DNA from: Bryobacterales bacterium
Lineage (GTDB): Bacteria > Acidobacteriota > Terriglobia > Bryobacterales > UBA6623
Length of the DNA stretch: 64,000 nt
Assembly: GCA_965219585.1 (NCBI GenBank)
Contig: CBDCOA010000003.1
Span: 2,001,375-2,065,374 of the forward strand
Direction: 5' to 3'
The notes beneath the pieces were generated by a model. The model had not been told where the DNA came from and did not search any database. It saw nothing but the letters and a program-made list of their open reading frames with translations. Below are positions 41,601 through 63,066 of the stretch, in pieces. Both the position numbers and the translations under genes were made by a program. The stretch's first letter is position 1; each line of letters opens with the position of its first letter.

Positions 41601-44600
41601 AGGGCGACGGCGGACCGGGACTTGGATCTGTTCGTGATGTTCTCGAGCATTGCTGGCGTGCTGGGGAATGCAGGTCAGGCGAACTACGCGGCGGCGAACG
41701 CGTTTCTGGACCAGTTGGCGCGGCACCGGCGGTCGGTGGGATTGGTCGGCCAAGCGATCGCGTGGGGGGCTTGGTCGGAAGTGGGCGAAGCAGAAGAGCG
41801 GCGTGCTCGGATCGCGCAGCAGTTGGCGGCGGCCGGCCTGGGCTGGATCACGCCGGAACGTGGCCTGCGTGTCTTCGACAAGCTGCTGCGGCAAGACTTG
41901 GTTGCCCCGGCAGCGGTCTCGATGGACTGGCAACGGTTCGCAGCCCTTCTGTCAGCGGACCAGCCCCTGCTGGACGAGCTTGTGGACTCCAAGCCCGTAG
42001 CAGAGGAGACAGCCCCAACGCTCGATCTCAGGAACCGTCTGCGAGAGGCGTCGCCCGGGGATCGCGAAGCCCTGCTAATGGAAATCGTGCAGGGCGAGGT
42101 CCAAGCGGTCCTGCAGCTTGCCTCACCCCCAGACCCGGCCGTCGGCTTCTTCGATCTCGGCATGGATTCGTTGATGGCGATTGAGCTGACGAACAGGTTG
42201 AACAGGTTGTTGACTGGCGAGTACCGGCTGGCTAACACCGCCGTGTTTGACCATGTCGACATCGCGAGCCTCGCACGACACCTGGCCGTGGAACTGCGTG
42301 TCGTTGAAGATGAGAGCCCGGAACCCGAACGGGCCGCGGCCCGCAGGCCGGAGGATGGCGGGATCGCTGTAGTCGGAATGGCGTGCAGGTTCCCGGGCGG
42401 GCAGGACCTGTTCAGGTTCTGGCAACAGCTCGAGGACGGGGGCAGCGCAATCACGGCGGAACGGCCAGGGGATCTCTGGGTCCATGCTGTCAGCGATTCC
42501 AAGGCGAGCTCTTCAGTCCGAGAAGCCGGTCGTTGGGGAGCGTTCATCGACGGGATCGACCAGTTCGATCCCGGCTTCTTCCGGATCACACCGATCGAGG
42601 CAGAGGGGATCGATCCGCAGCACCGGCTGCTGTTGGAGACAAGCTGGCACGCGCTAGAAGACGCAGGGATTAATCCCGGCTCTCTGCGTGGCCGCCGAGC
42701 CGGGGTTTTCGTGGGGATTTCAGGCAGCGAGTACAAGGATCTGATCCAGGCAAGCGAGAGCGACTTCTTCGATATCACGGCCCTGGAAGGGAACAGTACG
42801 AGCACTGGGGTCGGCCGCGTCGCGCACTTCCTCGGCCTCGAGGGTCCGGCAATGCCCGTGGACACGACGTGCTCTTCGTCGTTGGTGGCACTGCACCAGG
42901 CTTCGGCGGCACTGCGCTTGGGAGAAGCCGACCTGGCGCTGGCGGGGGGCGTGAACGCGATTCTCTCGAAGCGTGCGACCTACGGGATGGCCGGAGTGGG
43001 ACTGCTGTCGAATGACGGGCAGTGCAGGGCCTTCGATGCCTCGGCCAACGGATACGTGCGAGGAGAGGGCTGCGGCATGGTGGTCCTGAAGCGCCTGGCT
43101 GACGCAAAACGCGACGGGGACCCAATCTGGGCAGTGATCCGAGGATCGGCCGTGAACCACAACGGGGGCGGGGCGGGCCTGACCGTGCCGAACCTTGGGG
43201 CGCAGAGTCGGCTGCTCAGGGAAGCGCTCGCGAGCGCCGGGTTGGAGCCCCCCGACGTGGACTATCTTGAGGCACATGCGACGGGGTCGCTGCTTGGGGA
43301 CTCAGTCGAGTTGCAGGCCGCAGCCGAGGTGTACGGGGCGGGACGATCTTCCGACAGACCCCTGCTGCTGGGGTCCGTGAAGTCGAACATTGGGCACTTG
43401 GAGGCCGCTTCCGGCGTGGCTAGCCTGATCAAGGTTGTCCTAGCGATGCAGCGGCGGACCATTCCCAGGCACCTGCACTTCCGCGAGCCAAGCCCTGAGA
43501 TCGATTGGGGAAACTTGCCAGTGAAGGTCACGTCGGACGAAACTCCGTGGCTTTCGGCACAGCCTGGCTGCCCCTTGAGGGCAGGCATCAGTTCCTTCGG
43601 GCTCTCGGGCACAAACGCACACGTGCTCGTCGAGAGTTGCCAAACGACGGGCACCCATTCCGAGCGGGCGGCGCTCTCCGTGGCAGTCCCGATGCACTCT
43701 TCCGCGGGCTCAGAAACCACGGAGGGATCGTTCCGGGAGCGGGAGACAAGGCTGCTGCCGCTGTCGGGGCGGTCCGCGAGGGCGGTCCGCGACCTAGCCG
43801 GCCAATACTTGTCTTGGCTCGAACAGAATGCGGAGCGGCCAGCCGCGGAACACGAGGGTTCGGACCCGCCTGCCACCAGTGCAGACGCTGCCTCGCTGCT
43901 TGCGGACATGGCGTGGACGGCGGGAGTGGGCCGGAACCACTTTGGCCATCGGGTGGGATTGGTGTTCGGAAGTGCCGACGAACTGCGGGAAAGGTTGACA
44001 GCATTGGCAAGTGCGCGCGACGCCGCCCACTTTGCCGGACGTGCACCGAGTGTGGCATTTGTGTTTGCGGGCCAAGGCAGCCAGTGGCCAGCCATGGGGA
44101 GGGCACTCTACGAGAGAGAGCCAGACGGGCGGGCGATCTTGGAGCGCTGTGACCGGGTTATGCGGAAAGTGCGCGGGGTATCGCTGGTGGATGCGATGCT
44201 CGGTCGGCCAGGTGCCGCCGACGATCAGGGCGATCCGCTTTGGGCGGAACCGGGGCTGTACGCGGTGGAGTGTGCGCTGGCGGCCCTGTGGGAGAGGGTG
44301 GGGGTACGACCAGTCACGGTGCAGGGACACGGCGTGGGCGAGTTGGCGGCGGCCAAGGTTGCCGGAGTGTTCGGCCTGGAAGACGGCCTGCGACTCGCAG
44401 CGGCGCGGGGTGCGCTGAGTAGTTCCTTGCCCACAACAGGTCCGCGCGCCGGAACCCTCCTAGCCGTCTCCGCTCCCATGGAACGCTTGGAGACTGCCTT
44501 GGGCGCGCTGAATTCCGATTCAAGTCACGCTGGGCCGAGCGTGGTGTTGGATTCCGGGACACACCGCCTAGTCCATGGACCGGTGGCGGACATGGAACGG

Positions 44601-45158
44601 CTGGAAGCGCTGATCTCGGCTGAAGGGCTGCGGACGGAGAGGGTGAAGCCGGGGAGGGCTTCGCACGGCAGGTTGGCGGAAGCAGGACTCCATGAACTCG
44701 AATCGGCATTCCAAGGGACAAAGATGACGGTGCCGTCAGTGACCTTGGCCAGTTCGACCACCGGTCGCGATGTCGAGCCAGCCAAGCTGCTGGAGGCGAC
44801 GTACTGGCGACGCCAGGCTAGCGAGCCGGCAATCGACGGACGCAGTGCGGAGGCACCGCAGACACGGAAGGCGGGAATGGTCCTGGAGATCGGCTTCGAC
44901 GGGGACCCGCTGCGGGTCGTGGGCCAGGATTCGCCCAAGGCAGACACCAATGTCGACCCGGCACCTGAGCAGGGGATAAGCCTCCGGCAAGAATCTGGCA
45001 GTTCCAGCGGCTTTGCGACGGCGGTGGCCGCGGCGTACGAGGCTGGCGCGGCGCTCTCGTTCGAAGGGCTGTTCACCGGGGAGAGGCGCCGAAAGGTGCC
45101 GCTGCCGGGCTATCCGTTCCAGCGGGAGCGCTACTGGGTCACGCCCTCCAAGCATTAG
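11691..45158 (+). CDS. Giant type I modular polyketide synthase, 11,155 aa. Four complete KS-AT-DH-cMT-psiKR-ER-KR-ACP modules (C, D, E, F) followed by a terminal KS-AT(Ser->Gly) didomain with no ACP or TE.
   Basis: ATG at 11691 overlaps the gene 1 stop by 8 nt (gacgATGGATAAgt). One uninterrupted ORF runs to TAG at 45156-45158. The IA(I/V)[10 protein letters not shown] starts lie at 11784, 19482, 27099, 34734 and 42363. GHSVGE/HAFHS ATs, HxxxGxxxxP DHs, LE(V/I)GAGTG cMTs, TGGLAGIG KRs and GxDSL ACPs recur with about 7.6-kb period. Confidence 0.95.
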   Translation: MDKLTKYERLSRKLLAELNLRKEEIAQFRQPIAIVGMACRFPGGEGLASYWRQLEEGRCTVTEGRPGSVAGAPIVGSRPGSEAQDARRWGSFVREIDRFDADFFRIAPVEARLLDPQQRMLLETSWHALEEAGIDPSRLVETRTGVYAGISTSDYRALLAAGGEQDSGLYAVSGVSGSTAIGRVAFVLGLQGPAIAVDTACSSSLVALHQACVALQQGEADLALAGGVNAILAPSVTEATSKAGMLAPDGRCKTFDASANGFVRGEGCGIVVLKRLANAEADGDRIWAVIPGSAVNHDGASAGLTVPNGPAQEKVIAEALARAGLEPADVDYLEAHGTGTELGDPIEVHAASSAYGSGRRAGRPLLIGSVKTNIGHLESAAGVAGLIKVVLSMDRGVIPKHLHFRNPNPRIAWEHLPVEVTSEALPWPSFADRPWRAGLSSFGFSGTNAHMLIEAYGRPRGRSAQTKPSFSKRGLAVDVPVSLPAQAPALAAGQGPLAPREQRLLPLSGRSSKAVRELASRYLAWLQGRESEALGEEESQALLADMAWTAGLGRTHFDRRAGLVCGDLAELRSGLEEVVAGREIARAAQEPQVAFVFTGQGSQWAGMGRWLYEREPVARAVLDRCEQVMQELRGASLLDVMFGEPAAGSLDETEWTQPTLYALECALAAQWASVGVRPAAVLGHSVGEIAAAQAAGVFGLEDGLRFAAARGESMGSLPTEGPAAGAMLAVFAPQQRVAEALAEHNAGAAGAGLSLAADNGTHRVVSGPRAELEAIAEHFEPAGVRVAWLNTSHAFHSALMDPALADIEGALEAVALRSPAVPLVSNVAGRAMRAGEQLDGAYWRRQAREPVAFAAGVAALAEIGAEVVIEIGPQAVLGPLVEQAWPAGNAGGAESRPAVLGSLRREEGAAGGFAAAAAAAYEAGVAVSFEHLFAGESRRRVSLPVYPFQRERFWVDPLQRPTAGEGHALLGARRESARGGLTFETEMYSSAPAWLGDHRVFGMVVAPGALYGVLGVEVAASAAGEGAAVLEDLQLHEPLVWAQETPDGVAGGEGRSVQVFVDGDEGASPRVVEVYSRAGSEAAWQLHATARVLRGRADTGGAIDPKALREGLSSVDSADFYRGVAERGIEYGALFRGLAAVWSGPGEALGEVVLPPEADRGEMWLHPAQLDACFQVVGTTGGDDGDSAADTFMPFGWERLWLAGPLPDRVLCHARTRQARGAGGAGAEASEVQVVDLGLYDQQGMPLGGVSGLVLKRATRAALLSAVEGVDDLLYEVVWRERPQLGGPQSADFLAAPGVVGELRGSFAENLEAEGAALESWDDLLAGLAQLSQSYALAGMDALGWHRETGAIVEPEPLRRQLRVVADHRQLFRRLLEMLEQAGILQAQATESPSWVVTAGSGEPLPEGVAENPRALGAELLERHPAGSQELGLLMRCGDALADVLAGRVEPLELLFGGEDSGAAGLYHHSPGMRAANRTLGAAVGLLAAGLPERRRLRVLEVGAGTGSATAQALQTLPKGRFEYLYTDISAGFFAEAEERFGAEHAGIDYRVLDIEADPEVLGLDAHGHDLIIAANVLHATRDLEKTLENCRRLLAPAGLLVALETFRPQEWMDLTFGLLEGWWRFSDRYRSEHAMAGEAAWRQALKDAGFGDAEVLQGCVGDVVWQGVIVARGPLEVDEAPGLWVLAGNGSELVQELAGRLATRNQTVVVAGPGTRPEASPHARITSADVDPAKREAWRALLEGLPADARLRGVVHLGALDERGNAVTAAELAECTARIGKSALALVQGLQDAGAEPLDGLWFVTRGGQVVKRDQGGELAGATLWGLGKAVALEAHQLRPRMVDLDPREPEPLGRLVDELLHADRETHVAHRGAARYAARLARSAGTGRLGLPGEPGWRLARPAGGELDALGIEPAGLAAPGAGEIRVAVAAAGLSLHDVLIAMGTVDQASPLGTEFCGRVVAIGPGVTAVSVGDRVIGLAAGAYGPEVVTSQELVAKAPGEFPAAALATIPAAFVTAALALELGGLEAGQRVLVHTGAGDVGLAAIQLARAAGAAVFATASTEKLAHLRSLGVEQVFDSQPAAFGQEVLAVTAGAGVEMVLSSLTGPGFIEASLTCLAQGGRFVEIAGRDTWSAEQMAEARPDVGYHTLAVDRLVSEEPERVGAHLRVVAQGMENGALVPLPHSAWPLAEAGGAMEYFRSERPVGKAVLTLPRLVTGGLREDGTYLITGGLAGIGLLAAGWLADNGARWIVLNGRREPGPEAEAAIAGLRERGVEVRVELADVADSAAVDGMLERIGATMPPLAGAIHSAGVLADASLANQGWERFEKVMGPKVLGAWHLHRATLGRDLDLFVLFSSLTGVLGNAGQANHAAANAFLDQLARHRQSLGLPGQSIAWGPWSEVGEAEEQRSRIAERLAATGLGWIVPRRGMRALDRLLRQDVVSGTVLSVDWPRFGSRLPARQSLLEELVAPRAAAQSAAAKVDLVERLRTVPAREREGLLAGFLQGELQAVLRLASPPEVTSGFFDLGMDSLMAVELRNRLNRAFRGEYKASSTAVFDFPDIKSLAEHLAAELGETEAASTERERPVPAQALEGGIAIVGMACRFPGARDLSEFWDELEGAGWAVTPGRQGSAVGPTEDDFPESLGEHDARRWGAFVDEIDQFDAEFFRIAPVEAELLDPQQRLLLETSWLALEEAGIDPGRLKGGRSGVYAGIYTNDYSELIDRAGRRTTDLYVATGNSASTAIGRVAFALGLEGPAMAIDTACSSSLVAVHQAAVALQRGEADLALAGGVNAILTTTGSELLAKGGLLAPDGRCKTFDGSADGFVRGEGCGVVVLKRLREAEADGDRIWAVIRGSAVNQDGASAGLTVPNGPAQERVIGDALARAGLEPAEVDYLEAHGTGTELGDPIEVQAAAAVYGRGRAPDRPLLMGSVKTNIGHLEAAAGIAGLIKVALSMERGVLPRHLHFEKPSPRIDWDALPVEVAAEARRWPATPGRPVRAGVSSFGLSGTNSHVVLEAPDRDGKGPRDRAATAESESGGSRERLLPLSGRSPRAVRELAGRYLSWLRDRDGEASGEQESRSLLADMAWTAGLGRSHFDHRAGLVCADLAELRSGLEAVVAGREIARAAHGPQVAFVFTGQGSQWGGMGRWLYEREPVARAVLERCEQAMQELRGASLLDVMFGRPGAAGDLDDTGWTQPALYALECALAAQWASVGVRPAAVLGHSVGEIAAAHVAGVFGLEDGLRFAAARGESMGSLPVEGEASGAMLAVFAPQQRVAEALAEHGGGAAETGLGVAAENGTHRVVSGPRAALEALAERFELAGVRVARLNTSHAFHSALMDPALDTIEGALEAVELGTPAVPLVSNVTGRALRAGERMDGAYWRRQAREPVAFAAGVAALAEIGAGLVVEIGPQAVLGPLVEQAWPAGNGGGSGSKPAVLASLRREEGAAGGFAAAAAAAYEAGAAVHFEGLFAGESRRRMSLPGYPFQRERFWVEPPKRRIAGGGHALLGVRHEAARGGVTFETEMYSSDPAWLEEHRVFGMVVAPGALYGVMGVEVAATQSGAGAAALEDLQLHEPLVWDQARPDGAAGGDGRSVQVFVDGAAGSSGRVFEVYSRGGAESAWRLHATARVRRGQADTGRAIDPQSLRTGLSGVDSTDFYQSIAERGIEYGPLFRGLAAVWTGPGEALGEVVLPPEAGRDGMWMHPAQLDACFQVVGAAGRDSGESGADTYIPFGWERLWLSGPLPGQLLCHARTREAGHAAGAGSEAAQTLVADLDLYDQRGMPLGGVSGLVLKRATRAALLSAVEGVDDLLYELVWRERPRIGGPQSADFLAAPAAVRGLAGSFAEWLAAGGVPLASWTALEGGLEQLSRSYAMAALEALGWRRRKGSVVDPSRLRRQLKVVADHRKLFSRLLGMLAEAGLLQARAADLPGWSVAVGAREDLPEDLVEPRELARLLRERHAHGSVELGLVMRCGEALADVLRGRVDPRELLGGDHAGAQGVYRDAPAMRAVHRMMGATVGALVAGLPEQRRLQVLEIGAGTGSATAEVLAALPEGRFDYFYTDILAGCFPEARERFGAAIECRVLDIEEDLAIQGLEAHRYDLVVAANVLHATRDLGKALENCRKLLAPAGQLVTLEAFQAAAWRDLTFGLAEEWWWSSDRYRGECPLVGASVWRQALADAGFGEAEVLEGAVEDAVWHGVIVARGPLEVEQDPGLWVLAGDASPAVWELAEKLAASNQAVIVAGQAEERDSAQPAGVTTAYVDPTRREAWRALLGDPPAEAPLRGVVHLGALEGRGAAAATPELAQDVARIGASALALVQGLQDAQAKLLDGVWFVTRGGQAVERERGGQVAGSALWGLGKTVGLEAPQLRARMVDLDPRLPLQLDALVSELLHADPETHIAHRGATRHAARLVRGPRTGRLRLPEEAGWRLARDAAGALDALRVEPASLAAPGAGEIRASVTAAGLDFHDVLFAMGIADLQSELGAEFCGHVTETGTGVTAVSVGDRVVGLAAGAFGPEVVTSEELVARAPAGLSAAALATVPTAFLTAARGFELAGLEAGDSVLVHAGAGAVGMAAIRLAQAAGAVVIATASDSKGAYAQSLGVEHVFEGQATAFAQKVLDVTGGAGVAIVLNGAAGPDCVEASLSCLARDGRFVETVRDGSWSSEQMAAARPDVAYHAPAIDQLLVDEPGQIGTQLRALMRRMEAGELEPPLYSAWPVAEAGAAMELLRSGRTEGKLALMLPPLASGGLREDGTYLVTGGLAGIGRLAAGWLADSGARWIVLNGRREPDAEARAAIASLRERGVDVRTELADVTDPAAVDAMLERIEATMPALAGVIHSAGVISDASLANQDWERFEGVLGPKVLGAWHLHRATANRDLDLFVLFSSIAGVLGNPGQANYAAANAFLDQLARHRRSLGLAGQSIAWGPWSVTGQAEELRSRLAEGMAAGGVGWIRPRRGLRALDRLVRQDVVNGTVLSVDWPQFASRLPVTLPQLEELVAAGPAAQDRAAKTDLAERLRAVPAGEREGLLSGFLQAEVQSVLRLASPPDPTAGFFDLGMDSLMAVELRNRLNRELGGEYKASSTAMFDFPDIKSLAGHLAAELGEIEPAPIERKRPLPAQGLDGGIAIVGMACRFPGAQDLPGFWRELEAAECAVTPGRQNSTVGPTDEDVEGLLGEDDARRWGAFVEEIDKFDAEFFRIAPVEAELLDPQQRLLLETSWLALEEAGIDPGRLKGGRTGVYAGILSNDYSELIDRAGRTTSDLYVATGNAGSTAIGRVAFALGLEGPAMAVDTACSSSLVAVHQAVVALERGEADLALAGGVNAILTSTGNELLAKGGMLAADGRCKTFDASANGYVRGEGCGVVVLKRLQEAQADGDRIWAVIRGSAVNQDGASAGLTVPNGPAQERVIGEALARAGLEPADVDYLEAHGTGTELGDPIEVQAAAAAYGPGRAPDRPLLMGSVKTNIGHLEAAAGVAGLIKVALSMEHGVLPRHLHFEKPSPRIDWDALPVEVTAEARRWPTTPGRPVRAGVSSFGFSGTNSHVVLEAPDRNGKGPVDRSATAESESGGSRERLLPLSGRSPRAVRELAGRYLSWLRDRDGEASGEQESRSLLADMAWTAGLGRSHFDHRAGLVCADLAELRSGLEAVVAGREIARAAHGPQVAFVFTGQGSQWGGMGRWLYEREPVARAVLERCEQAMQELRGASLLDVMFGRPGAAGDLDDTGWTQPALYALECALAAQWASVGVRPAAVLGHSVGEIAAAHVAGVFGLEDGLRFAAARGESMGSLPVEGEASGAMLAVFAPQQRVAEALAEHGGGAAETGLGVAAENGTHRVVSGPRAALEALAERFELAGVRVARLNTSHAFHSALMDPALDTIEGALEAVELGTPAVPLVSNVTGRALREGERMDGAYWRRQAREPVAFAAGVAALAEIGAGLVVEIGPQAVLGPLVEQAWPAGNGGGSGSRPAVLASLRREEGAAGGFAAAAAAAYEAGAAVHFEGLFAGESRRRVSLPGYPFQRERFWVEPPKRRIAGGGHALLGTRRDMVGGEVTFETQMFASAPEWLGDYSVLGLIVVPGSLYGAAAVETAGAMPGMAGVVVEDLHVQVPMHFAGEDGHSEPDDRGKTVQVVVKDTEESAARRMELYSQGPEDTWTLHAAARLGRPADRVDLPAAVDIEARRSGLSPKSAPDIYRGLAATGIEYGEALRSVEAVWSSQGEAVAEIALPGGLEPMGSWLHPAQIEGFFQLAALLANDTEGARPGALIPSGWERLWLVGPLPERLVCCARMRASNGVGLQRAGDSGAQVADLDLYDPRGMPLGGVSGLALKPTTRAALLSAAGGVEDLLYEVVWREQPWVSGLQSAGFLAAPSAAGELRGTFIEKLEAEGAVLESWEELLGGLAQVSRSYALAGMEALGWHRETGAIVEPEPLRRQLRVVADHQHLFRRLLGMLEKAGVLQARETESPSWVVTVGSGEPLPEGVAQNPRALAEGFLERHPSGSHEMSLLMRCGDALADLLAGRVEPLELLFGGEFAGLADLYHHSPGMRAANRMLGAAVGLLAAGLPEGRRLRVLEVGAGTGSATAEALKALPAGRFEYLFTDLSAGFFAEAEERFGATDAGIEYRVLNIEAAPEGLGLPAHRHDVIIAANVLHATRDLAKTLENCRRLLAPAGLLLALETFRPQEWMDLTFGALEGWSRFSDQYRSEHAMADEGVWRQALADTGFGEVEVLEGGVGDVVWQGVLVARGPLEVADTPGLWVLAGNGSAAAQELAGRLATRNQTVIVAGQGTMPEASQHARITAADMDPAKREAWRALLEGLPAEARLRGVVHLGALNEQGNAVTTAKLAECTTRIGESALALVQGLQDAGAEPLDGLWFVTRGGQVVKRDQGGELAGAMLWGLGKAVAMEADQLRPRMVDLDPREPEPMDRLVDELLHADRETHVAHRGAARFAARLVSSARTGRLGLPGEPGWRLTRDTGGAPDALRVESAGLAAPGPGEVRVAVAAAGLNSHDVLIAMGISDQHSPLGTEFCGQVTSTGAGVTEVSAGDRVVGLASGAFGPEVLASEELVAKAPDGFPAAALAAIPAAFVTAELALELGGLEAGHRVLVHAREGDVGLAAVQLARAAGAEVLATASTDMLAYLRSLGVEHVFDSQATDLGQEVLAATAGAGVGMVLNSLAEPGFIEASLACLEQGGRFVEIAGRDTWSAERMAEARPDVGYHVLALDRLASDEPARVGTQLRSAVRRMGARKLEPLPHSAWPLAEAGAAMEYFRSERPVGKVVLTLPRLATGGLREDGTYLVTGGLAGIGLLAADWLADCGARWVVLNGRQEPDAEAKPAIEALRKLGVEVRVEVTDVTDSAAVDGMLERIERTMPPLAGVIHSAGVLADATLANQGWERFERVIGPKVLGAWHLHTATAGRDLDFFVLFSSIAGVLGNAGQANHAAANAFLDQLAWHRRSMGLAGQSIAWGPWSEVGEAEEQRARIAERLAASGVGWIVPRRGLRVLDSLVRRDVVCATVLSVDWSQFASHLPATLPLLRELVAPRAGGRGVAAKVDLVERLRAVSARERERLLAGFLQGEVQAVLRLASPPEVTSGFFDLGLDSLMAVELGNRLNRAFGGEYKPTSTEVFDFPDIKSLAGHLAAAFGEIEEAPAGPERPVPTLGQEGGIAIVGMACRFPGARDLSAFWDELAGAGCAVTPGRQGSSVGPSEGDFPEQVGEQDARRWGAFVDEIDLFDAEFFRIAPVEAEVLDPQQRILLETSWLALEEAGIDPGRLRGGRTGVYVGIATNDYSEVIERGGRRTGDLYVATGNSGSTAIGRVAFSLGLEGPAMAVDTACSSSLVALHQGVAALERGEADLVLAGGVNAILTPTSTELLAKGGMLAPDGVCKAFDAAANGFVRGEGCGVVVLKRLREAEADGDRIWAVIRGSAVNQDGASAGLTVPNGPAQERVIGQALARAGLEPAEVDYLEAHGTGTELGDPIEVRAAAAAYGRGRAANRPLLMGSVKTNIGHLETAAGIAGLIKVVLSMEHGMLPKHLHCRQLNPRIDWDALPVEVTTEARPWPASPDRPVRAGVSSFGFSGTNSHVVLEAPESHRRGHGPLMPIAAAQAGTGGPPEPRGKRLLPLSGKSSLAVRELAGRYLSWLESRGGVLGQGEESESLLADMAWTAGAGRSHFEHRASVVFGDLSELRAALEELAADREIARAAQEPQVAFVFTGQGSQWAGMGRWLYEREPVAQAVLDRCEKVMQELRGASLLEVMFGQPGAAGDLDDTGWTQPALYALECALAAQWASVGLSPVAVLGHSVGEIAAAQVAGVFELEDGLRFAAARGELMGSLPVDGPEAGAMLAVFASPQRVSQALEEHAAGDDGSGLSLAAENGTHRVVSGPLEEVETLAKRFEQAGVRVARLNTSHAFHSTLMDPVLDDIEEALEAVTLGSPAVALVSNVTGRAVREGERLDGAYWRRQAREPVAFAAGVQALAEIGVDVVVEIGPQAILGPLVEQAWPAESSDGAVSGPRVVESLRREAGGANGFSAAVAGAYEAGAAISFEGLFAGEIRRRVPLPGYPFQRKRFWIEQGKRKVTEEGHALLGARRDSARGGMAFETDLHATDPAWLADHRVFGMVVAPGALYGVLGVEAAATTGGTDAVVLQDLQLHEPMIWLEEPEDGPPAGEGRTVQVFVDGAEGSSGRLFEVYSQGSGETAWQLHATARVERGEAGTPEAIGLGALRETLSRVDSTDFYRSIRRRGIVHGPAFQGLAAIWSGPGEAIGEVVLSSQAGPGRLWMHPAQLDACFQVVVATVRDAEEFDSDTYMPIGWERMWLAGPVPERMFCHARLLERPDAGTPGPGPAEVLVAELGLYDMQGAALGGVRGLVLKRATRAALVSAIEGVEDLLYETAWRKQPRAGRQRAADLPAAQAGLEQLRGSFAESLASEGVPPEAWSALHEDLDRLARSYAMAGLEALGWRREKGAVVDLSLAQEQLKVVGDHRRLFGRMLAMLAEAGVLQAEAEGTPGWAVAVGADDDLPEGLASEPGAVGARLLERHAHGAHELGVLIRCGETLADVLRGHADPLEVLSGPEGAGLADIYRHAPGMRAANRMVGKTVAALVAGLPKGRPLRVLEIGAGTGSTTAEVLAVLPAGRFSYVCTDSSQSCLAETEARFGAGVESRVLDIEADPAGQGLEPHRYDLVIAADVLHATRDLGKTLEHCRRLLAPAGHLVVLESLRPQAWRDLTFGLMEGWWRFADPYRDDQALAGASAWRQALEESGFGDVEVLESGAEDTAWQGVIVARGQFEAEEEPGVWVLAGGASALAQELAEKLETRNQAVVLARHDTDQLAGVTTAYVDPTRREAWSSLLADLRSEAPLRGVVHLGALEGHGATATTPELAQDMARIGEGALALLQGLQDVGAEPLEGMWFVTRGGQVVERERGGQLAGATLWGLARAVALEAPQLRLRMVDLDPRAPLQADSLLDELLDADRETLVAHRGATRHAARLVRAARTGRLRLPEEAGWRLAPGTGGSLDDLRVEPAGLPAPGEGKIRASVSAAGLNFYDVLSAMGVVDLYNPLGAEFCGRVIAIGPGVTSVAVGDRVAGLAAGAFGPEVVTSEELVAKSRSGLPAAALATVPTTFLTAAIAFELAGLQAGDRVLVHAGAGGVGLAAIRLAQAGGAEVIATASSWKRPYLRSLGVQHVFDSRTTAFGEKVLAVTGGAGVEVVLNSLTGPGFIEASLACLGQGGRFVEIAKRDIFSAEQMAAARPDVDYHILALDQLVIDEPERVGTQLRALMDRIDSKDLEPLPHSAWPLAEASAAMEHMRSARHVGKIVLTLPSLASGGLRGNGTYLVTGGLAGIGRLAATWLADNGARWIVLNGRREPDSEAGAAIAALRERGVTVQVELADVTDSAALDSMLERVEAAMPPLAGVIHSAGVIADASLTNQDWGGFERVLEPKVLGAWHLHRATADRDLDLFVMFSSIAGVLGNAGQANYAAANAFLDQLARHRRSVGLVGQAIAWGAWSEVGEAEERRARIAQQLAAAGLGWITPERGLRVFDKLLRQDLVAPAAVSMDWQRFAALLSADQPLLDELVDSKPVAEETAPTLDLRNRLREASPGDREALLMEIVQGEVQAVLQLASPPDPAVGFFDLGMDSLMAIELTNRLNRLLTGEYRLANTAVFDHVDIASLARHLAVELRVVEDESPEPERAAARRPEDGGIAVVGMACRFPGGQDLFRFWQQLEDGGSAITAERPGDLWVHAVSDSKASSSVREAGRWGAFIDGIDQFDPGFFRITPIEAEGIDPQHRLLLETSWHALEDAGINPGSLRGRRAGVFVGISGSEYKDLIQASESDFFDITALEGNSTSTGVGRVAHFLGLEGPAMPVDTTCSSSLVALHQASAALRLGEADLALAGGVNAILSKRATYGMAGVGLLSNDGQCRAFDASANGYVRGEGCGMVVLKRLADAKRDGDPIWAVIRGSAVNHNGGGAGLTVPNLGAQSRLLREALASAGLEPPDVDYLEAHATGSLLGDSVELQAAAEVYGAGRSSDRPLLLGSVKSNIGHLEAASGVASLIKVVLAMQRRTIPRHLHFREPSPEIDWGNLPVKVTSDETPWLSAQPGCPLRAGISSFGLSGTNAHVLVESCQTTGTHSERAALSVAVPMHSSAGSETTEGSFRERETRLLPLSGRSARAVRDLAGQYLSWLEQNAERPAAEHEGSDPPATSADAASLLADMAWTAGVGRNHFGHRVGLVFGSADELRERLTALASARDAAHFAGRAPSVAFVFAGQGSQWPAMGRALYEREPDGRAILERCDRVMRKVRGVSLVDAMLGRPGAADDQGDPLWAEPGLYAVECALAALWERVGVRPVTVQGHGVGELAAAKVAGVFGLEDGLRLAAARGALSSSLPTTGPRAGTLLAVSAPMERLETALGALNSDSSHAGPSVVLDSGTHRLVHGPVADMERLEALISAEGLRTERVKPGRASHGRLAEAGLHELESAFQGTKMTVPSVTLASSTTGRDVEPAKLLEATYWRRQASEPAIDGRSAEAPQTRKAGMVLEIGFDGDPLRVVGQDSPKADTNVDPAPEQGISLRQESGSSSGFATAVAAAYEAGAALSFEGLFTGERRRKVPLPGYPFQRERYWVTPSKH
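11784..19410 (+). other. PKS module C: KS 11784-13060, AT 13467-14555, DH 14585-15480, cMT 15945-16725, psiKR 16745-17380, ER(degenerate) 17385-18335, KR 18363-19060, ACP 19180-19410
   Basis: AT has GHSVGE and HAFHS. DH has DHRVFGMVVAP and AQLDACFQ. ER reads HTGAGDVG and RFVEIAG (Gly 18078-18080 at the Lys position). KR reads QANHAAAN (cac 18804-18806). ACP Ser is at 19287-19289. Confidence 0.85.
19482..27030 (+). other. PKS module D: KS 19482-20755, AT 21096-22190, DH 22215-23100, cMT 23565-24335, psiKR 24355-25000, ER(degenerate) 25005-25950, KR 25981-26680, ACP 26800-27030
   Basis: DH has EHRVFGMVVAP and AQLDACFQ. ER reads HAGAGAVG and RFVETVRD, with no Lys. KR has the canonical QANYAAAN (tac 26421-26423). 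ACP Ser is at 26904-26906. Confidence 0.85.
20800..22235 (+). repeat. AT-domain repeat, copy 1 (module D KS-AT linker + AT + post-AT linker)
   Basis: Copy 2 lies exactly 7617 nt downstream. 20800-21805 is identical by direct reading. The supplied track confirms this: shadow ORFs 20809..21240, 20882..21694 and 21109..21705 translate identically to 28426..28857, 28499..29311 and 28726..29322. 21806-22235 differs by roughly a dozen substitutions. Confidence 0.9.
27099..34665 (+). other. PKS module E: KS 27099-28372, AT 28713-29807, DH0 29832-30720, cMT 31190-31970, psiKR 31990-32625, ER(degenerate) 32630-33585, KR 33615-34310, ACP 34435-34665
   Basis: The DH motif reads WLGDYSVLGLIVVPG, with Tyr codon tac 29931-29933 where the other modules have His. 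It also reads AQIEGFFQ, with Glu 30453-30455 where the others have Asp. ER reads HAREGDVG and RFVEIAG. KR reads QANHAAAN (cac 34056-34058). ACP reads GLDSL (Ser 34539-34541). Confidence 0.85.
28417..29852 (+). repeat. AT-domain repeat, copy 2 (module E)
   Basis: See copy 1. Identity decays upstream of ~28417 (KS region about 90% at protein level) and ends abruptly after HALLG at 29852, where the divergent module E DH begins. Confidence 0.9.
34734..42300 (+). other. PKS module F: KS 34734-36010, AT 36366-37455, DH 37488-38360, cMT 38840-39610, psiKR 39630-40255, ER 40260-41212, KR 41243-41940, ACP 42065-42300
   Basis: DH has DHRVFGMVVAP and AQLDACFQ. ER has HAGAGGVG (~40679-40703) and RFVEIAK with Lys codon 40959-40961. 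KR has QANYAAAN (tac 41685-41687). ACP Ser is at 42168-42170. This is the only complete module in which every reductive motif is canonical. Confidence 0.85.
42363..45158 (+). other. Terminal KS-AT0 didomain: KS 42363-43635, AT-like 44052-45155. No ACP, TE, reductase or condensation domain follows.
   Basis: KS has VDTTCSSS, EAHATGS and SNIGHLEAASG, so Cys/His/His are present. The AT-like region has GQGSQW but reads VQGHGVGE, with Gly codon ggc at 44331-44333 at the active-site Ser position, and RASHG where the other modules have HAFHS. The ORF stops right after the post-AT linker YPFQRERYWVTPSKH. Confidence 0.85.
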
Positions 45159-45782
45159 CGGTTGCGAACTCAAGGGAATCTCGATGGTGGATCGCACGTC
45201 AGGAGATCGTATAGGCCAACTGCGGTACCTTGGAACAGCACGGAGTTGCTCGAACGCAGCTGGTCGGGAGGCTTCGGTCAGGCTGGCTAGTCCTAGCCCA
45301 CGGCCTGCGAGCAGCGGTGACGCCAGCGGCCGCCGGTGGCATCTGGCATTCGCCAGCCAAATTCAACACCAGAAGCCCGGACGTACGAGTCCGACACGAC
45401 CGAGACCGACTGGCGGCGTGATGCTGGAAGCACCCCATGGCAGCCGGGCAGTTGTCGTGCGAGATGGCGCAGGGAGCCTGCTCCTACCATGCCGGAGCGT
45501 CAATCCGCACCGCGCTGGCTCGCCAAGGGTTTCCGTTGAGGTGGCTGCAGGCGTTCGCTCTGGGATGAGTGCGCATCGGGCTGATTGGGCCACTAGACCC
45601 GGCATTGACCGCGACCCAATCCGCCAGCAAACCCTCTGCTGCCGTCCGTCTTGTGCAACGGACTACTCGCGAGGAGTTCAGCCCGCTTCCGCAGCAGCCT
45701 TGAGCGCTTCTGCGGACTGGCCAGGTTCGGAGGCAATGGCAGTGCAAGGCGAGCTGAAGCGGCTGCTAGGTGTCGTGTAGCC

Positions 45783-46931
45783 ATGAGTGAACCTCTCGTC
45801 TCGGGCAGCACTGCGGACCGTCGCCAACCGTCCGGGGTGCCAAGCCTCTCATATATGTTCCCGTTCATTCCGCCCAAGGTGTGGATTCGACTGCTTTGGG
45901 AACACAACGGATCACAACTTCGTCATTGGCCTCACTTAGCACAGCAGCTTCTGACCAGCATCCTGGCGAGCCCCTTGAAGTGGGCCGAGCGCATTCAATT
46001 CGACCAACGGATTGCCAGAACACCGATCGAGGAGGCCCCGCTGACGATTCTGGGCCTCCCACGCAGTGGGACTACTCACTTGCACAACTTGCTCGCTCAA
46101 GATCCAAGGCACGGGTTCGTCTCCACGTTTCAAGCGATTGCACCGGAGTGTTGTCTGAGCGGGGGAGAAACACTCCAACGGTGGGTTGCAAAGCATCTTC
46201 CAAGCAATCGACCAATGGACAGCGTAGAATTCGCACTGGAGCACCCACAAGAGGAAGAATTTGCGATAGCCAACTTGAGCCATATGTCGTTCTACCATGC
46301 AATGTGGTTCCCGAGACTCTCAACGGAATATTTTGGCAAGTATGTCCTTATGTATGGACTGAAATCCGAAGAATTCATCGAGTGGAGAAAAACCTATCTT
46401 GACGTCGTACGCAAGGCCCAATATTATTCCAAGAGGCGTCGAATCATACTCAAGAATCCGTTAAGCATTTTCAGAATACCTGCAATTCTCAAGATCTTCC
46501 CAAGCATGAAGTTCATCCACATTGTGAGGAATCCATTTCTGCTATACCAATCCTTGTGCAATGCAATGCGACAGCTCTCCTTTGGATTAGACTATTCGGA
46601 CAAAGAAATCGAGAACTTTGGCATCATGTACTATACGATCGGACTGAATTCATACCTCCAAGACCGTAAGCTGATTCCGTCAGGAAACTTGATTGAAGTG
46701 CGATATGAAGATCTAATTGCAAATCCAATTCCTGAACTTGAGCAGGTTTATACACAACTCGATCTCCGCGAATGGGAACAACACAAGGGTCACATTTCTG
46801 AATATATTCGCTCCATATCAGACTACAAGAAAAATCGTTACAAGATTAGCAAGTCAGCGATTGACCGGGTAAATGACGCTTGGGGTTTTGCGGTAAAGGA
46901 GTGGGGGTATAGCGCGCCAGAACCGCAGTAA
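45783..46931 (+). CDS. Stand-alone PAPS-dependent sulfotransferase (TPST-like / Sulfotransfer_3-type)
   Basis: The 5'-PSB loop is LGLPRSGTTHLHNLLAQDP. The 3'-PB segment is FPSMKFIHIVRNPFLLYQS, which fits the ...FPxAKFIhIVRdPxxxxxS pattern. Stop TAA is at 46929-46931. The start is uncertain: ATG 45783 or the in-frame ATG 45855 (MFPFIPPKVW), where the GC drop begins. The track ORF start at 45651 is an upstream extension with no support. Confidence 0.85.
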   Translation: MSEPLVSGSTADRRQPSGVPSLSYMFPFIPPKVWIRLLWEHNGSQLRHWPHLAQQLLTSILASPLKWAERIQFDQRIARTPIEEAPLTILGLPRSGTTHLHNLLAQDPRHGFVSTFQAIAPECCLSGGETLQRWVAKHLPSNRPMDSVEFALEHPQEEEFAIANLSHMSFYHAMWFPRLSTEYFGKYVLMYGLKSEEFIEWRKTYLDVVRKAQYYSKRRRIILKNPLSIFRIPAILKIFPSMKFIHIVRNPFLLYQSLCNAMRQLSFGLDYSDKEIENFGIMYYTIGLNSYLQDRKLIPSGNLIEVRYEDLIANPIPELEQVYTQLDLREWEQHKGHISEYIRSISDYKKNRYKISKSAIDRVNDAWGFAVKEWGYSAPEPQ

Positions 46932-47380
46932 GGGGCAGTTGTATCAGAAATGAGGCCCCGGGGCACATCGTACCACTTCGGGCACAGCGGCTTGGTCGCC
47001 GATCAGCAGAGGGCCGGCCGAGCGAGGAACACCAGCGGAGCGATTGGAGTTGAGGATCGAGGCTTGCTTGCGAATCCAGACAGACAAGTCGTTGGGCAAG
47101 GCAACCGTGCCTAGCGACAATTGTTCATGTCGGCGTGTTGCCTCATCTCCGGATGTTCTCTGGATTCCCATCGTCGGCAACTCGCTGTGAATGGAAAGGT
47201 CTTGGGGAAATTCTTGGGCACGGGTCGAAGTGCCGCGCCAAATCATCGACGGCGGGCGATTTGGAGAATTGCTCTTTCCACCACGCCGAGCGCTTCGTAC
47301 TGGCTCGAGGCCCTCGGAGAGCCCCGCTGTGCGGCCGCGTACGCCTGCCGGCTGACCGGGCGGCATGTTGATTGAGCCCA

Positions 47381-48769
47381 TCAATCAGCACTGAAACCGA
47401 TCCTGCTGAGGAAATCAGTGGTCAGGCGTGCACATTCCGCTGGCCGTTCAAGTTGGGCGAGATGAGTGGTGCCGGGGATCGACTCAAAGTCAACGGACTC
47501 GACATGGCTAAGGTCACACGGTGGCAGGAAATAGTGACGGATGCTTGGATCCGCACCGATCACCTTTGTCGGCAAAGGGAAGAACTCTACATCGACCATG
47601 CGCGAGAACGTGGGCATAGCAGCCAAGATCTGGGCCTCGTAATTGGGCGGGCACCGAAGTTCGAAGGCTCCGTCTGGCACATATCGGAGGGTAGTCCGCG
47701 CCATCAACTCCGCCACGTTCGGAACCAAGCGCTCCATTCCTGGCGAAGCGTTCATGAGCTTGACGAATTTCCATTCGCTTGGAAACAGACCGAGCCGATT
47801 GCGAGTTCTCATGGCCGCCTGCCGACATGCAGATTCGAAGATCCGGTGCTTGGACTCTGACGCACAGAAAGGTGGATCGAAACAGACGAGGGCTGAGAAC
47901 TCGCTCTCGAGGGACGGTGACAAGACCGCCGCTAAGCTCGAGACGGAATGAAAGACACCAGCTTTCGGATGCACGCCGAATGCCCGATCCACCGTCTGAC
48001 ACACTGCCTCCAAATCTCTGCGAAAGGAAGGAATGGTGTGGTGCGACCTCTCAGCCAGCGGGTTCGCGCCTTGATTTCGAAGGTCGAACAGCAACAGGTC
48101 GAACTTGTCGAGCAAAAGCGACCAGTACGGGAAATAGAGGTCTATAGCGAGACCGTTGCCCGAGCTCACCACTAGGCGTGGGCCGTCTGGATTCCCGTGC
48201 TGCCGCAACAGGATCACGGCGCCGTCTTGTAGCCGCAGCTCCTCGACCCGATGAGGCGAAGGCAATTCGAAGTGAGCGGTTGCCCCGCTTGGCAAATATG
48301 GCCTCACGACTGGTGCCCCCGGAAGCGCGATCCAAGAGCCAACAGGTCGCGACCCCGACGACTTAGCAGACCATTGCCGACCGTCGCAATCGACGTGCAA
48401 GCCTTGATTCCCATCGAGCAGTCGGCATGCAGCGGGCCGGCTCCCAGCTAGCCGAATTCTAGCAGCCTGCGGCAAGAGACTGAGTCCTGAAAGATGGCTG
48501 AGTTGCGCGACCGTGGACAGGCTCTGTCCACCGGGCCCGGCCCGCCGCCCATATGCACCGACTTCCTCGCGAGCGAACCGGGTGTCGACTTCAGGCTGAA
48601 TCCGCGGGTAACCCTCCACAGCCGCAAACACCATAGAGGTGTGACCGATGGCGAGCATTAGGACCGGCAAGTTCGACGATGACTTGAAAGTGCGGCTGCG
48701 CAGCTCGCAGCTGTGCGCCGCCGTTCCATAGAAGAGGAGGTTAGAATCACCCTGCGCGACACTGTGCAT
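47381..48769 (-). CDS. Alpha/beta-hydrolase fold protein (candidate thioesterase/esterase). The fold occupies the C-terminal ~300 aa (~47381-48310). The N-terminal ~150 codons of the ORF are of doubtful coding value.
   Basis: Motifs: the oxyanion-region strand PRLVVSSGNGLAIDLYFPYW...FDLRNQG; a nucleophile-elbow-like GVFHSVSS (Ser275 codon 47945-47947), aligned to GHSxGG; and a C-terminal ESIPGTTHLAQLERPAE with the catalytic-His context (His436 codon 47462-47464). There is no Met between codons ~45 and 320. GTG at 48307-48305 is a possible real start. Confidence 0.65.
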   Translation of the reverse strand: MHSVAQGDSNLLFYGTAAHSCELRSRTFKSSSNLPVLMLAIGHTSMVFAAVEGYPRIQPEVDTRFAREEVGAYGRRAGPGGQSLSTVAQLSHLSGLSLLPQAARIRLAGSRPAACRLLDGNQGLHVDCDGRQWSAKSSGSRPVGSWIALPGAPVVRPYLPSGATAHFELPSPHRVEELRLQDGAVILLRQHGNPDGPRLVVSSGNGLAIDLYFPYWSLLLDKFDLLLFDLRNQGANPLAERSHHTIPSFRRDLEAVCQTVDRAFGVHPKAGVFHSVSSLAAVLSPSLESEFSALVCFDPPFCASESKHRIFESACRQAAMRTRNRLGLFPSEWKFVKLMNASPGMERLVPNVAELMARTTLRYVPDGAFELRCPPNYEAQILAAMPTFSRMVDVEFFPLPTKVIGADPSIRHYFLPPCDLSHVESVDFESIPGTTHLAQLERPAECARLTTDFLSRIGFSAD

Positions 48770-62282: not shown

Positions 62283-63032
62283 TCAGCCGCTGAGAGTGAA
62301 GTTCACGTCGATATTTGTCAGCACCTCGACCGCCTCGCCGTTTAGCAGCGTCGGCTTGTAGCGCCACTGCTTCACGGCAGCCAGCGCGGCCGGGACCAAG
62401 AGCGGGTGGCCGGACATAACCTCCAGCTTCTGGATCGAGCCGTCCTTGGAAATCACGGCCGAGAGCTTGACCGTGCCCTGGATGCGCGCCTGGCGGGCCA
62501 GCGGCGGGTACTGCGGGCGCACCTGGCGCGTGAGGCGGGCCTTGGCGACATTGCCGCCCACGCGAATGCGCTTGGGCGGGGCCTTCTTCTTGACCGGCGG
62601 AGGGGGCGGGGGCGGGGGCGCGTTCGAAGCCGCGGACGTGATGATTCCGCCGAGCACGCCGCCGAGCTGCCCGCCGACGCTGCCGCCGGGCACGCCGCCG
62701 ACCACGCCGGCGATGCCGGCGCTAGGCGCCGCGATGTCCTCTTCGATGATCGCAACCTTGTCGGGGATGGCGACCGGCTGCGTGAGGGCGCCGCTGTCAA
62801 ATTCCTTGGGAACGGCCTTCACCACCACGGCCGCAGGCGGGGGCGGCGGGGGCGGCGGAGGCGGGGGCGCCGTCAGGAAGCTCACGAAGTCGGCGTCCGG
62901 CAGCTCGTAGTAGTTGATCAGCGGGATCAACAGCACGACGCCGACCAACAACAGCTGCAGGACGGTGGACAGAATGACGGACCATTTCGAGGTCCCCTTC
63001 TGAACGTTTTCCATTAATGCGTCTTCAAACAT
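62283..63032 (-). CDS. tonB: TonB family energy transducer
   Basis: The gene has an N-terminal TM helix (WSVILSTVLQLLLVGVVLLIPL), poly-Pro spacers (PPPPPPPPPPPP and PPPPPPPP) and a C-terminal TonB domain (RPQYPPLARQARIQGTVKLSAVISKDGSIQKLEVMSGHPLL...AVKQWRYKPTLLNGEAVEV). Confidence 0.9.
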   Translation of the reverse strand: MFEDALMENVQKGTSKWSVILSTVLQLLLVGVVLLIPLINYYELPDADFVSFLTAPPPPPPPPPPPAAVVVKAVPKEFDSGALTQPVAIPDKVAIIEEDIAAPSAGIAGVVGGVPGGSVGGQLGGVLGGIITSAASNAPPPPPPPPVKKKAPPKRIRVGGNVAKARLTRQVRPQYPPLARQARIQGTVKLSAVISKDGSIQKLEVMSGHPLLVPAALAAVKQWRYKPTLLNGEAVEVLTNIDVNFTLSG

Positions 63033-63066
63033 GGTTGCAAGTTCCTCCCAAGATACCTTGCCATAC

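Follow-up and report, generated by a model that had tools for sequence, protein, structure and literature searches.

The closest described counterparts of the sulfotransferase (ST) considered here are the mycobacterial enzymes Stf9 (PDB 2z6v) and Stf1 (2zq5), single-domain proteins with a 5′-phosphosulfate loop and a 3′-phosphate motif. ST domains of the same superfamily also occur in association with polyketide synthases (PKSs)—that is, in CurM of the curacin pathway (4gbm) and in an olefin synthase (4gox)—where the domain is fused between ACP and TE. With respect to base composition, the nearest parallel is offered by AT-rich accessory genes and islands in GC-rich genomes, which, like the present gene, combine low GC with atypical codons over long divergence. 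The locus described below, from an uncultured soil member of the Bryobacterales (Acidobacteriota), resembles each of these systems in part. It lies in a stretch of 64 kb with a GC content of 0.679, referred to as the window (W), and comprises the following features, in window coordinates:

11691..45158, + strand: cis-AT modular PKS gene, 11,155 aa, GC 0.70, GC3 0.83 (open reading frame list and Pfam).
45159..45782 (624 nt), no strand: non-coding PKS–ST spacer, GC 0.64, homologous throughout in all three lineages compared.
45783..46931, + strand: ST, a stand-alone PAPS-type sulfotransferase (Sulfotransfer_3, Pfam PF13469; Stf1/Stf9-like), 382 aa.
46190..46875, no strand: core low-GC segment, GC 0.42, wholly within the ST reading frame (codons ~137–365).
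46932..47105, no strand: ST-downstream segment, still homologous with the related lineage L003 (alignments and blastn synteny blocks).
47381..48343, − strand: α/β-hydrolase gene, zearalenone-lactonase-like (PDB 8clt, E = 2.3e-8), GC 0.58–0.59, GC3 0.65.

The ST protein matches PF13469 over profile positions 1–215 of 216, with E = 1.5e-33 and a score of 117.4 bits (curated cut-off, 27), and its start codon, ATG 45783, is common to the three aligned orthologues (W and the related lineages L003 and L005). All family-invariant residues in a 40-sequence alignment are retained, including RSGTTHL (residues 94–100) and R249...S257; the motifs LPRSGTTHL (residues 92–100) and IVRNP...S (R249, S257), which we take to be the 5′-phosphosulfate-binding loop and the 3′-phosphate-binding motif, respectively, fall in invariant columns. 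An AlphaFold2 model (pLDDT 88, pTM 0.87) showed one ST fold, whose top matches in the PDB are all sulfotransferases; Stf9 and Stf1 lead both the structural comparison (Foldseek E = 7e-11 and 6e-10; TM ~0.6) and the profile search (E = 3e-22 and 1e-18). The dN/dS among the three orthologues is 0.17–0.22. Judged by its sequence, ST is intact, codes for a PAPS sulfotransferase of the Stf-like kind, and evolves under purifying selection. Unlike Stf9 and Stf1, to which it is 16–18% identical, it belongs to another phylum and is tied to a modular PKS; its most likely role is in tailoring within the PKS cluster, where ST would most likely O-sulfate the polyketide product using PAPS, with gene linkage suggesting the acceptor. 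The product recorded for this gene is a protein of 238 aa that starts at nucleotide 46215, near the main GC step described below, and lacks the PAPS-binding loop, such that cluster mining or automated annotation could miss or misjudge the enzyme.

The similarity to the ST domains of CurM and the olefin synthase is weaker in profile (E = 1.6e-7 and 6e-9) and fold (Foldseek E ~3e-5) comparisons. As in those systems, an α/β hydrolase is found near ST in two of the lineages, but it is absent beside ST in L005. In contrast to the fused domains, ST is here encoded on its own, starting 624 nt beyond the PKS stop codon, and the PKS ends in KS-AT0 (post-AT linker) without a terminal ACP: in a Pfam scan of its last 1052 aa, the order is ACP-KS-AT0, and neither ACP nor TE follows. 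The active site of the terminal AT reads GHGVGE (Ser to Gly) in all three lineages, in which the terminal KS also retains its Cys, His, and His. In the last complete module, a motif scan found DH, MT, and ER motifs, which do not by themselves imply activity; with DH and ER motifs present, no β-hydroxyl would be expected, unlike in the CurM-type substrate, a β-hydroxyacyl-ACP made by a last module with KR only. CurM-like off-loading was rejected because the PKS/ST architecture does not fit it. A literature search for sulfotransferase–PKS clusters in Acidobacteria returned nothing relevant.

A preliminary description of this DNA had noted a sharp compositional break at ST from hand counts of single 60-nt lines, which proved exact for ST (GC 0.517 at 45841–45900, 0.367 at 46441–46500, and 0.467 at 46741–46800) and the PKS (0.783 at 21301–21360 and 0.667 at 30241–30300), and held for the hydrolase reading frame (0.591), with the spacer at 46.9–47.4 kb, put at ~52%, recomputed as 0.61. 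The full profile of GC, GC3, and codon adaptation bore out the strong deviation of ST from the rest of the window and from the PKS at whose 3′ end it lies. ST has a GC of 0.487, with GC1/GC2 of 0.525/0.386 and a GC3 of 0.548, whereas the PKS has GC1/GC2/GC3 of ~0.75/0.52/0.80–0.83. In windows of 700 nt, GC outside 45–47.5 kb averages 0.684 (sd 0.033, minimum 0.571), and the minimum of the whole stretch, 0.429, lies at 46201; 60-nt lines with a GC of 0.50 or lower make up 12 of 20 inside ST and 3 of 1046 outside it, the latter all at 63.0–63.5 kb. The codon adaptation index, with native genes as reference and the PKS cut into 382-codon chunks, is 0.380 for ST versus a PKS mean of 0.646 (sd 0.056, minimum 0.523). 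Host-rare codons are enriched, among them TTA (7.9 vs. 0.2 per 1000) and ATA (10.5 vs. 0.9).

Segmentation placed a weak step at ~45842 (0.65 to 0.56), in agreement with the earlier proposal that the drop starts near ATG 45855, and the main step at ~46190, where GC falls to 0.42; recovery occurs at ~46875 (to 0.58) and ~48147 (to 0.64). A two-change-point likelihood over 43–50 kb gave GC values of 0.649, 0.423, and 0.614, with a log-likelihood ratio of 58.9. Thus, the sharpest discontinuity lies within the reading frame, near codon 137, rather than at the boundary of a gene, and GC declines in order from the PKS (0.70) through the spacer (0.64) and the 5′ part of ST (0.57) to its 3′ part (0.42). 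When the deficit of ~0.21 is decomposed—host 0.70, ST protein written in host codons 0.587, observed 0.488—synonymous codon choice accounts for about half of it and amino-acid composition for the other half. Phe, Tyr, Met, Ile, Asn, and Lys, with AT-rich codons, are raised in ST and Gly, Ala, Arg, and Pro lowered, most strongly over the C-terminal two-thirds. The composition-normalized dinucleotide signature is host-like (δ* of 73 vs. 71.5 ± 23.5 in host windows). The same ST sequence recurs in several independent assemblies (two NCBI metagenome-assembled genomes plus ENA and Logan contigs) and is therefore no assembly artefact. A chimera of a high-GC N-terminal part and a low-GC C-terminal part was also considered and rejected: both parts best match the same high-GC relatives (L009 and L010), and in the model one domain spans the GC step.

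The GC anomaly is specific to this ST clade. Among 64 homologues with flanking sequence, gene GC tracks flank GC (mean difference −0.021, sd 0.026, minimum −0.081, compared with ~−0.19 here), on which basis low GC as a trait of the whole family was rejected. Outside the clade, the nearest relatives, at 45–46% identity, have GC values of 0.62–0.69, equal to their flanks, and lie on high-GC contigs; low-GC family members are 30–35% identical to ST, L012 (GC 0.30) being the one exception at 37%, and in no case does a low-GC relative exceed ~39%. In a neighbor-joining tree, the ST clade has a weakly bootstrapped placement and a long stem branch (0.42).

The preliminary description had attributed the composition to a comparatively recent horizontal transfer of ST, perhaps with the whole 45.2–49.0 kb patch, from a much lower-GC donor onto the end of a native PKS. 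The strongly deviating base composition (GC and GC3) and codon adaptation index fit such an event, as do the location of ST on the margin of the conserved block, with synteny to L005 ending 27 nt after the stop codon, and an insertion sequence (IS) fragment 11 nt past that stop in the sister strain L001. However, the PKS–spacer–ST block is also present in L003 and L005, whose STs are 78% and 74% identical to that of the window in amino acids and equally low in GC (0.459 and 0.477), with the same 5′-to-3′ gradient. For the three lineage pairs, dS is 0.56, 0.91, and 1.04 for ST versus 0.24, 0.46, and 0.44 for the PKS; the two sets of divergences rank alike, which does not agree with a recent acquisition. 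The same low-GC ST at the same site in related lineages—it is present there in all three that are known—indicates an old, stable feature instead of a recent foreign graft, and is the very finding that the preliminary description had named as contradicting its own proposal. Furthermore, the left spacer is homologous in all three lineages and thus offers no fresh junction, the nearest relatives and the dinucleotide signature lend no support to a much lower-GC donor, and third-position changes are balanced, without amelioration. We therefore regard recent transfer as extremely improbable.

The spacer diverges at Jukes–Cantor distances of 0.24 and 0.61, near the PKS dS, and has no match in Pfam, NCBIfam, or Rfam and no similarity to PKS domains. 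A hidden coding sequence or PKS relic within it was rejected on these grounds and because substitutions show no 3-nt periodicity, despite indels in multiples of three. No ST-less relative of the PKS was found, the query with the terminal AT0 having reached only proteins shorter than 800 aa, with identities of at most 48% across the greater part of AT0 and up to 60% in partial matches.

The absence of transposases and tRNAs at the borders that had been noted earlier was confirmed within the 64-kb window: neither a transposase reading frame nor a tRNA was found, and a search for direct repeats flanking the ST region was negative. In L001, a 99%-identical strain, a fragment of an ISAzo13 transposase (PF07592, E = 6.5e-23; L001:11160–11411, − strand) replaces ~140 nt of 46932..47105. 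This transposase was dismissed as a border element of ST since it is confined to L001, the window keeping the ancestral sequence common to L003. The block shared by W and L003 continues for ~170 nt past the stop codon at a GC of ~0.6. The suggestion that the whole patch is foreign holds in so far as the hydrolase, too, departs from the PKS, with a GC3 of 0.65 and a codon adaptation index of 0.44 (~3.6 sd under the PKS chunks), but the patch is not one unit, with a spacer at GC 0.64 that is homologous in three lineages and a hydrolase found in one further lineage only. The latter is 84% identical in amino acids, over 323 aa, to its counterpart at L003:13375–14376 (− strand), with a dS of 0.335 and a dN/dS of 0.25; in L003, other genes separate it from ST. 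The 462-aa form of the hydrolase reading frame, running to 48769, is probably over-extended. Between W and L003, dS climbs as GC3 drops, from 0.24 in the PKS through 0.335 in the hydrolase and 0.41 in the N-terminal part of ST to 0.69 in its C-terminal part.

The direction of substitution was read from polarized third-position changes in ST, 37 of them AT to GC and 41 GC to AT, over three lineages and 78 substitutions, for which the outgroup is saturating. The two ingroup lineages differ, with a net GC gain in W (22:15) and a net loss in L003 (15:26). From these counts, an equilibrium GC3 of 0.80 is rejected at p = 5e-10 and one of 0.64 at p = 0.0035, the implied equilibrium being 0.48 in ST, compared with 0.72 in the PKS and 0.57 in the spacer. 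A non-stationary two-state likelihood fit, which assumes a clock, gave an ST equilibrium of 0.31 with a root value of 0.655, rejecting values of at least 0.64 at p < 0.01, and found the PKS to be stationary at 0.78. By arithmetic on the substitution counts, AT-to-GC change per AT site is ~0.20 in both ST and the PKS, whereas the GC-to-AT rate per site is ~2.5 times higher in ST. Thus, ST is not ameliorating toward the GC content of its host.

This persistence would also be compatible with an old transfer, from a donor of ~45–50% GC and before the three lineages split, with the composition since held by selection, whether for AT-rich DNA to which a nucleoid-associated silencer of the cluster could bind or for rare codons that would limit translation of ST. 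The GC, GC3, and GC2 of ST equal those of family members in hosts of 47–52% GC (GC3 and GC2 of 0.55 and 0.39), which keeps an old low-GC donor among the possible sources; the composition has been held over a dS of ~1 without amelioration, and host-rare codons, including TTA and ATA, are enriched. Precedents counted in favor of this reading are the retention of AT-rich acquired genes under xenogeneic silencing, discussed together with AT-rich acquired DNA in GC-rich genomes (PMC8476142), and Pseudomonas aeruginosa, for which no systematic amelioration was found (PMC8461475). However, low-GC relatives are at most ~39% identical to ST, and rare codons turn over among the three orthologues, so that their sites are not fixed; bldA-like TTA control through position-fixed rare codons was rejected, with only TTA 269 and AGA 178 (alignment positions) common to all three. 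The GC difference between the N- and C-terminal parts (0.135) exceeds that of every family member (mean 0.025, sd 0.023), which means that ST cannot just be a donor gene preserved unchanged. Silencing of such a locus would call for a host protein of the H-NS, Lsr2, MvaT, Rok, or MucR type bound to the AT-rich tract; we know of no xenogeneic silencer described in Acidobacteria, which was counted against this reading. Unlike known AT-rich islands, ST is a single 1.15-kb gene in a biosynthetic cluster, with its main step inside a reading frame and a window without mobility genes, and since its nearest homologues are high in GC, a foreign origin is itself unproven. On balance, an old transfer of this kind seems unlikely.

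A further alternative is that a high-GC family member decayed toward AT in situ, at a block edge where recombination and GC-biased gene conversion would be rarer, with GC falling toward the 3′ breakpoint. All of the nearest relatives are high in GC, GC falls monotonically from the PKS to the 3′ part of ST and jumps back at the breakpoint, and dS climbs along the same gradient. The higher ancestral GC3 favored by the likelihood fit (0.655, falling), the host-like dinucleotide signature, and the long stem branch (0.42), along which amino acids moved toward those with AT-rich codons, point the same way. Against this, the tree places the clade with weak bootstrap support, GC has on balance risen slightly in W, and the block shared with L003 extends ~170 nt beyond the stop codon at a GC of ~0.6, which argues that the edge itself is not AT-rich. 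In situ decay is thus judged distinctly unlikely.

Weighing these observations, we consider it probable that the low-GC ST is a long-standing, stably inherited member of a giant Bryobacterales PKS cluster, with its own compositional steady state, on which the GC-raising force is most likely weak or ineffective. The PKS–spacer–ST block would already have existed in an ancestor shared by three or more species-level lineages and since been inherited as a unit, with ST resting at a GC3 of ~0.5 and not drifting toward the host value of 0.8. The force keeping its neighbors at a GC3 of ~0.8 may be codon selection or GC-biased gene conversion; if it is weak or ineffective on ST, AT-biased mutation would set the composition there. 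Some points weigh against such a steady state: the GC-raising force acts on the neighbors, including the non-coding spacer (GC 0.64), yet would spare ST, and the support comes from three lineages and 78 substitutions, with W and L003 differing in direction. As for its source, ST may possibly have entered by an old transfer or have been recruited as a high-GC family member that then drifted toward AT. Selection for regulation, with the AT-rich ST body kept as a putative silencer nucleation site or as a rare-codon throttle on sulfation, is quite improbable; if true, it would explain a composition unmoved toward the host over a dS of ~1.

The feature itself is of an ordinary kind, and its persistence mildly unusual, the puzzle being that ST holds a GC3 of ~0.5 beside genes at 0.8. 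It also calls for caution in island calling, since a dip of ~20 GC points, ordinarily taken as the mark of a recent island, is here old and vertically inherited, with no amelioration. As for chemistry, the sequence predicts a polyketide from this uncultured member of the Bryobacterales that probably carries a sulfate group.

The discontinuity at the sulfotransferase gene (ST) is real and extreme by GC segmentation, 700-nt windows, and the codon adaptation index. Most of the window, which has an overall GC of 0.679, is made up of two huge polyketide synthase (PKS) ORFs, and the genes concerned are as follows:

20-11698, +: giant PKS ORF 1, GC 0.685, GC3 0.80
11691-45158, +: giant PKS ORF 2, GC 0.701, GC3 0.83
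45783-46931, +: ST ORF, 382-aa Sulfotransfer_3 protein
47381-48769, -: alpha/beta hydrolase ORF, zearalenone lactonase-like (PDB 8clt, E = 2e-8)

Outside 45-47.5 kb, 700-nt windows have a mean GC of 0.684 (sd 0.033, minimum 0.571), and the lowest value in the whole window, 0.429, lies at 46201. Likelihood segmentation placed a weak step at ~45842 (0.65 to 0.56) and the main step at ~46190, where GC falls to 0.42, with returns to 0.58 at ~46875 and 0.64 at ~48147; the deepest trough thus lies inside a single ORF, without gene borders as its limits. The codon adaptation index, measured against native genes, is 0.380 for ST versus 0.646 ± 0.056 for PKS chunks. The 60-nt hand counts in the preliminary description proved exact on recomputation, and its ~52% for the 46.9-47.4 kb spacer was corrected to 0.61. 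The same sequence occurs in several independent assemblies, so the contig is not chimeric. A second, milder dip (62925-63675, GC 0.51-0.57), the sole other site in the window with 60-nt lines of GC ≤0.50, covers the 3′ part of ORF 63067-63969 together with the stretch that separates two minus-strand ORFs.

Close ST relatives in the protein collection form only three clusters (99%, 78%, and 74% identity), with the next matches at 46%. In all three corresponding contigs—a 99%-identical strain (L001) and two further lineages (L003 and L005)—ST was found directly 3′ of the orthologous giant PKS gene. ST has a GC of 0.459 in L003 and 0.477 in L005, next to PKS sequence of 0.67, with the same 5′-to-3′ gradient as in the window's lineage (W). 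The preliminary description had read ST, and perhaps the whole 45.2-49.0 kb patch, as a recent transfer; equally low-GC orthologues occupy a conserved position in L003 and L005, the outcome named beforehand as refuting this. The discontinuity marks a functional gene that is old and stably kept and was not grafted in recently.

The 624-nt spacer between PKS and ST aligns over its full length among the related loci and diverges about as fast as PKS synonymous sites, with neither codon periodicity nor similarity to PKS domains. Beyond ST, synteny between W and L003 runs to 47105 and restarts at the hydrolase, and that between W and L005 stops 27 nt past the ST stop; decay of ST GC tied to the edge of this conserved block is a live rival explanation of the dip. 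In L003, ST is separated from the hydrolase by a metallophosphoesterase gene, a small ORF, and an IS1595 fragment, and L005 has no hydrolase beside ST. The hydrolase shares 84% identity with a 333-aa protein of L003, so its 462-aa ORF is probably over-extended at the 5′ end; it is atypical too (GC3 0.65, codon adaptation index 0.44). No tRNA was found in the window. At the ST borders there are no notable direct or inverted repeats and no Rfam match, and promoters or terminators are not convincingly enriched. In L001, a 75-residue C-terminal piece of an ISAzo13-family transposase (11160-11411, -) lies 11 nt past the ST stop and takes the place of ~140 nt (window ~46933-47070) still common to W and L003, making this a later, strain-specific event.

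Nei-Gojobori estimates were obtained for the pairs W-L003 / W-L005 / L003-L005:

ST: dS 0.56 / 0.91 / 1.04; dN/dS 0.17-0.22
PKS, last 3100 aa: dS 0.24 / 0.46 / 0.44; dN/dS 0.28-0.29

The divergences rank alike, indicating that ST and PKS were co-inherited, with ST evolving about twice as fast. Between W and L003, dS climbs with falling GC3, from 0.24 (PKS) through 0.335 (hydrolase) and 0.41 (ST N-terminal part) to 0.69 (ST C-terminal part). When L005 served as the outgroup, ST had 37 AT→GC versus 41 GC→AT third-position changes along the W and L003 lineages, counts that reject equilibrium GC3 values of 0.80 (p = 5e-10) and 0.64 (p = 0.0035); the implied equilibria are 0.48 for ST, 0.72 for PKS, and 0.57 for the spacer. 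A non-stationary likelihood model with two states gave a poorly constrained ST equilibrium of 0.31 with a root of 0.655, rejected equilibria of at least 0.64 (p < 0.01), and found PKS stationary at 0.78. The two lineages moved in opposite directions (AT→GC:GC→AT 22:15 in W, 15:26 in L003), and ST shows no consistent shift towards host composition. Arithmetic on the third-position counts gives ~0.2 AT→GC changes per AT site in both genes, and a per-site GC→AT rate ~2.5 times higher in ST than in PKS.

As for the much lower-GC donor proposed for ST, none is indicated, its nearest relatives being high-GC and its Karlin composition-normalised dinucleotide distance (73 versus 71.5 ± 23.5) ordinary for this genome. 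For the 64 distant family members whose flanks extend 2 kb or more, GC relative to the flank averages -0.021 (sd 0.026, minimum -0.081), versus ~-0.19 for the window ST; the N-half minus C-half difference averages 0.025 (sd 0.023) across the family, versus 0.135 between the N- and C-terminal parts here. Outside the clade, the three nearest homologues have flank-like GC (0.62-0.69) and N-to-C differences of 0.05-0.07, and homologue GC correlates positively with identity to the window ST (Spearman 0.55). A chimeric ST was rejected, the best matches of both halves being the same high-GC genes. In a neighbour-joining tree, the ST clade is monophyletic on a long stem (0.42) and sits, not firmly, beside a large, mostly high-GC group. 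The ancestor was possibly high-GC, and the balance leans slightly towards long residence in this lineage. The two closest of these, P0005 and P0004 (loci L089 9201-10625 and L093 3331-5313; 46% identity), each have a cytochrome P450 gene immediately downstream, suggesting that members of the subfamily often use hydroxylated small molecules as substrates.

In a 40-sequence alignment, ST keeps every family-invariant residue, including the RSGTTHL loop and the RNP...S motif, and its AlphaFold2 model (pLDDT 88, pTM 0.87) is one sulfotransferase domain across both GC regimes. Mycobacterial Stf9 and Stf1 are the best solved relatives; tyrosylprotein sulfotransferases and the PKS-embedded CurM and olefin-synthase ST domains are more distant. 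A public product has only 238 aa (46215-46931); its start, Met145 (nt 46215), coincides exactly with the GC step, and the PAPS-binding loop is missing from it. It is probably a gene-calling truncation, an artefact of the composition shift. ST proteins of the clade are depleted in Gly/Ala/Arg/Pro (0.24 versus 0.32) and enriched in Phe/Tyr/Met/Ile/Asn/Lys (0.28 versus 0.20), a shift that peaks in the C-terminal part. Rewritten with host codon usage, the protein would be encoded at a GC of 0.587 (observed 0.488; host 0.70), and its closest homologues at 0.63-0.67. Selection for AT-richness, keeping ST GC low, is also a live rival.

PKS ORF 2 (11,155 aa) ends ACP-KS-AT0 with no ACP or TE after it (end region 42363-45158), an architecture at odds with CurM-like ST-TE release. 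The terminal AT reads GHGVGE instead of GHSVGE (catalytic Ser→Gly) and the terminal KS triad (Cys, His, His) is intact; the substitution, the KS triad, and the KS-AT0 ending without ACP/TE are kept in all three lineages, with dN/dS of 0.17-0.26 for KS and 0.39-0.47 for AT0. Judging by conserved linkage alone, tailoring O-sulfation of the polyketide is the most likely role of ST. The two giant PKS ORFs share 8 nt (11691-11698), consistent with translational coupling. Adjacent modules are nearly identical at 18.7-29.4 kb (PKS2 residues ~2764-5900), the AT domains near residues 3227 and 5766 differing at few positions only, which points to a recent duplication of modules or to gene conversion within the megasynthase. 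A sulfite-oxidase-family molybdopterin oxidoreductase (Oxidored_molyb + Mo-co_dimer; 49068-50402, +) lies 2 kb from ST. The source organism belongs to a Bryobacterales (Acidobacteriota) MAG lineage, and the downstream DUF1549/DUF1553/DUF1501 genes would suit a soil Acidobacterium or Planctomycete.

In the best-supported account, ST would have been recruited once, early, into the PKS cluster and would since have stood at its own compositional equilibrium, near GC3 0.5, the likely cause being that the GC-raising force active on neighbouring genes is ineffective on ST. Other cases of persisting atypical composition are known (PMC8461475, PMC8476142), and ST adds a further example.
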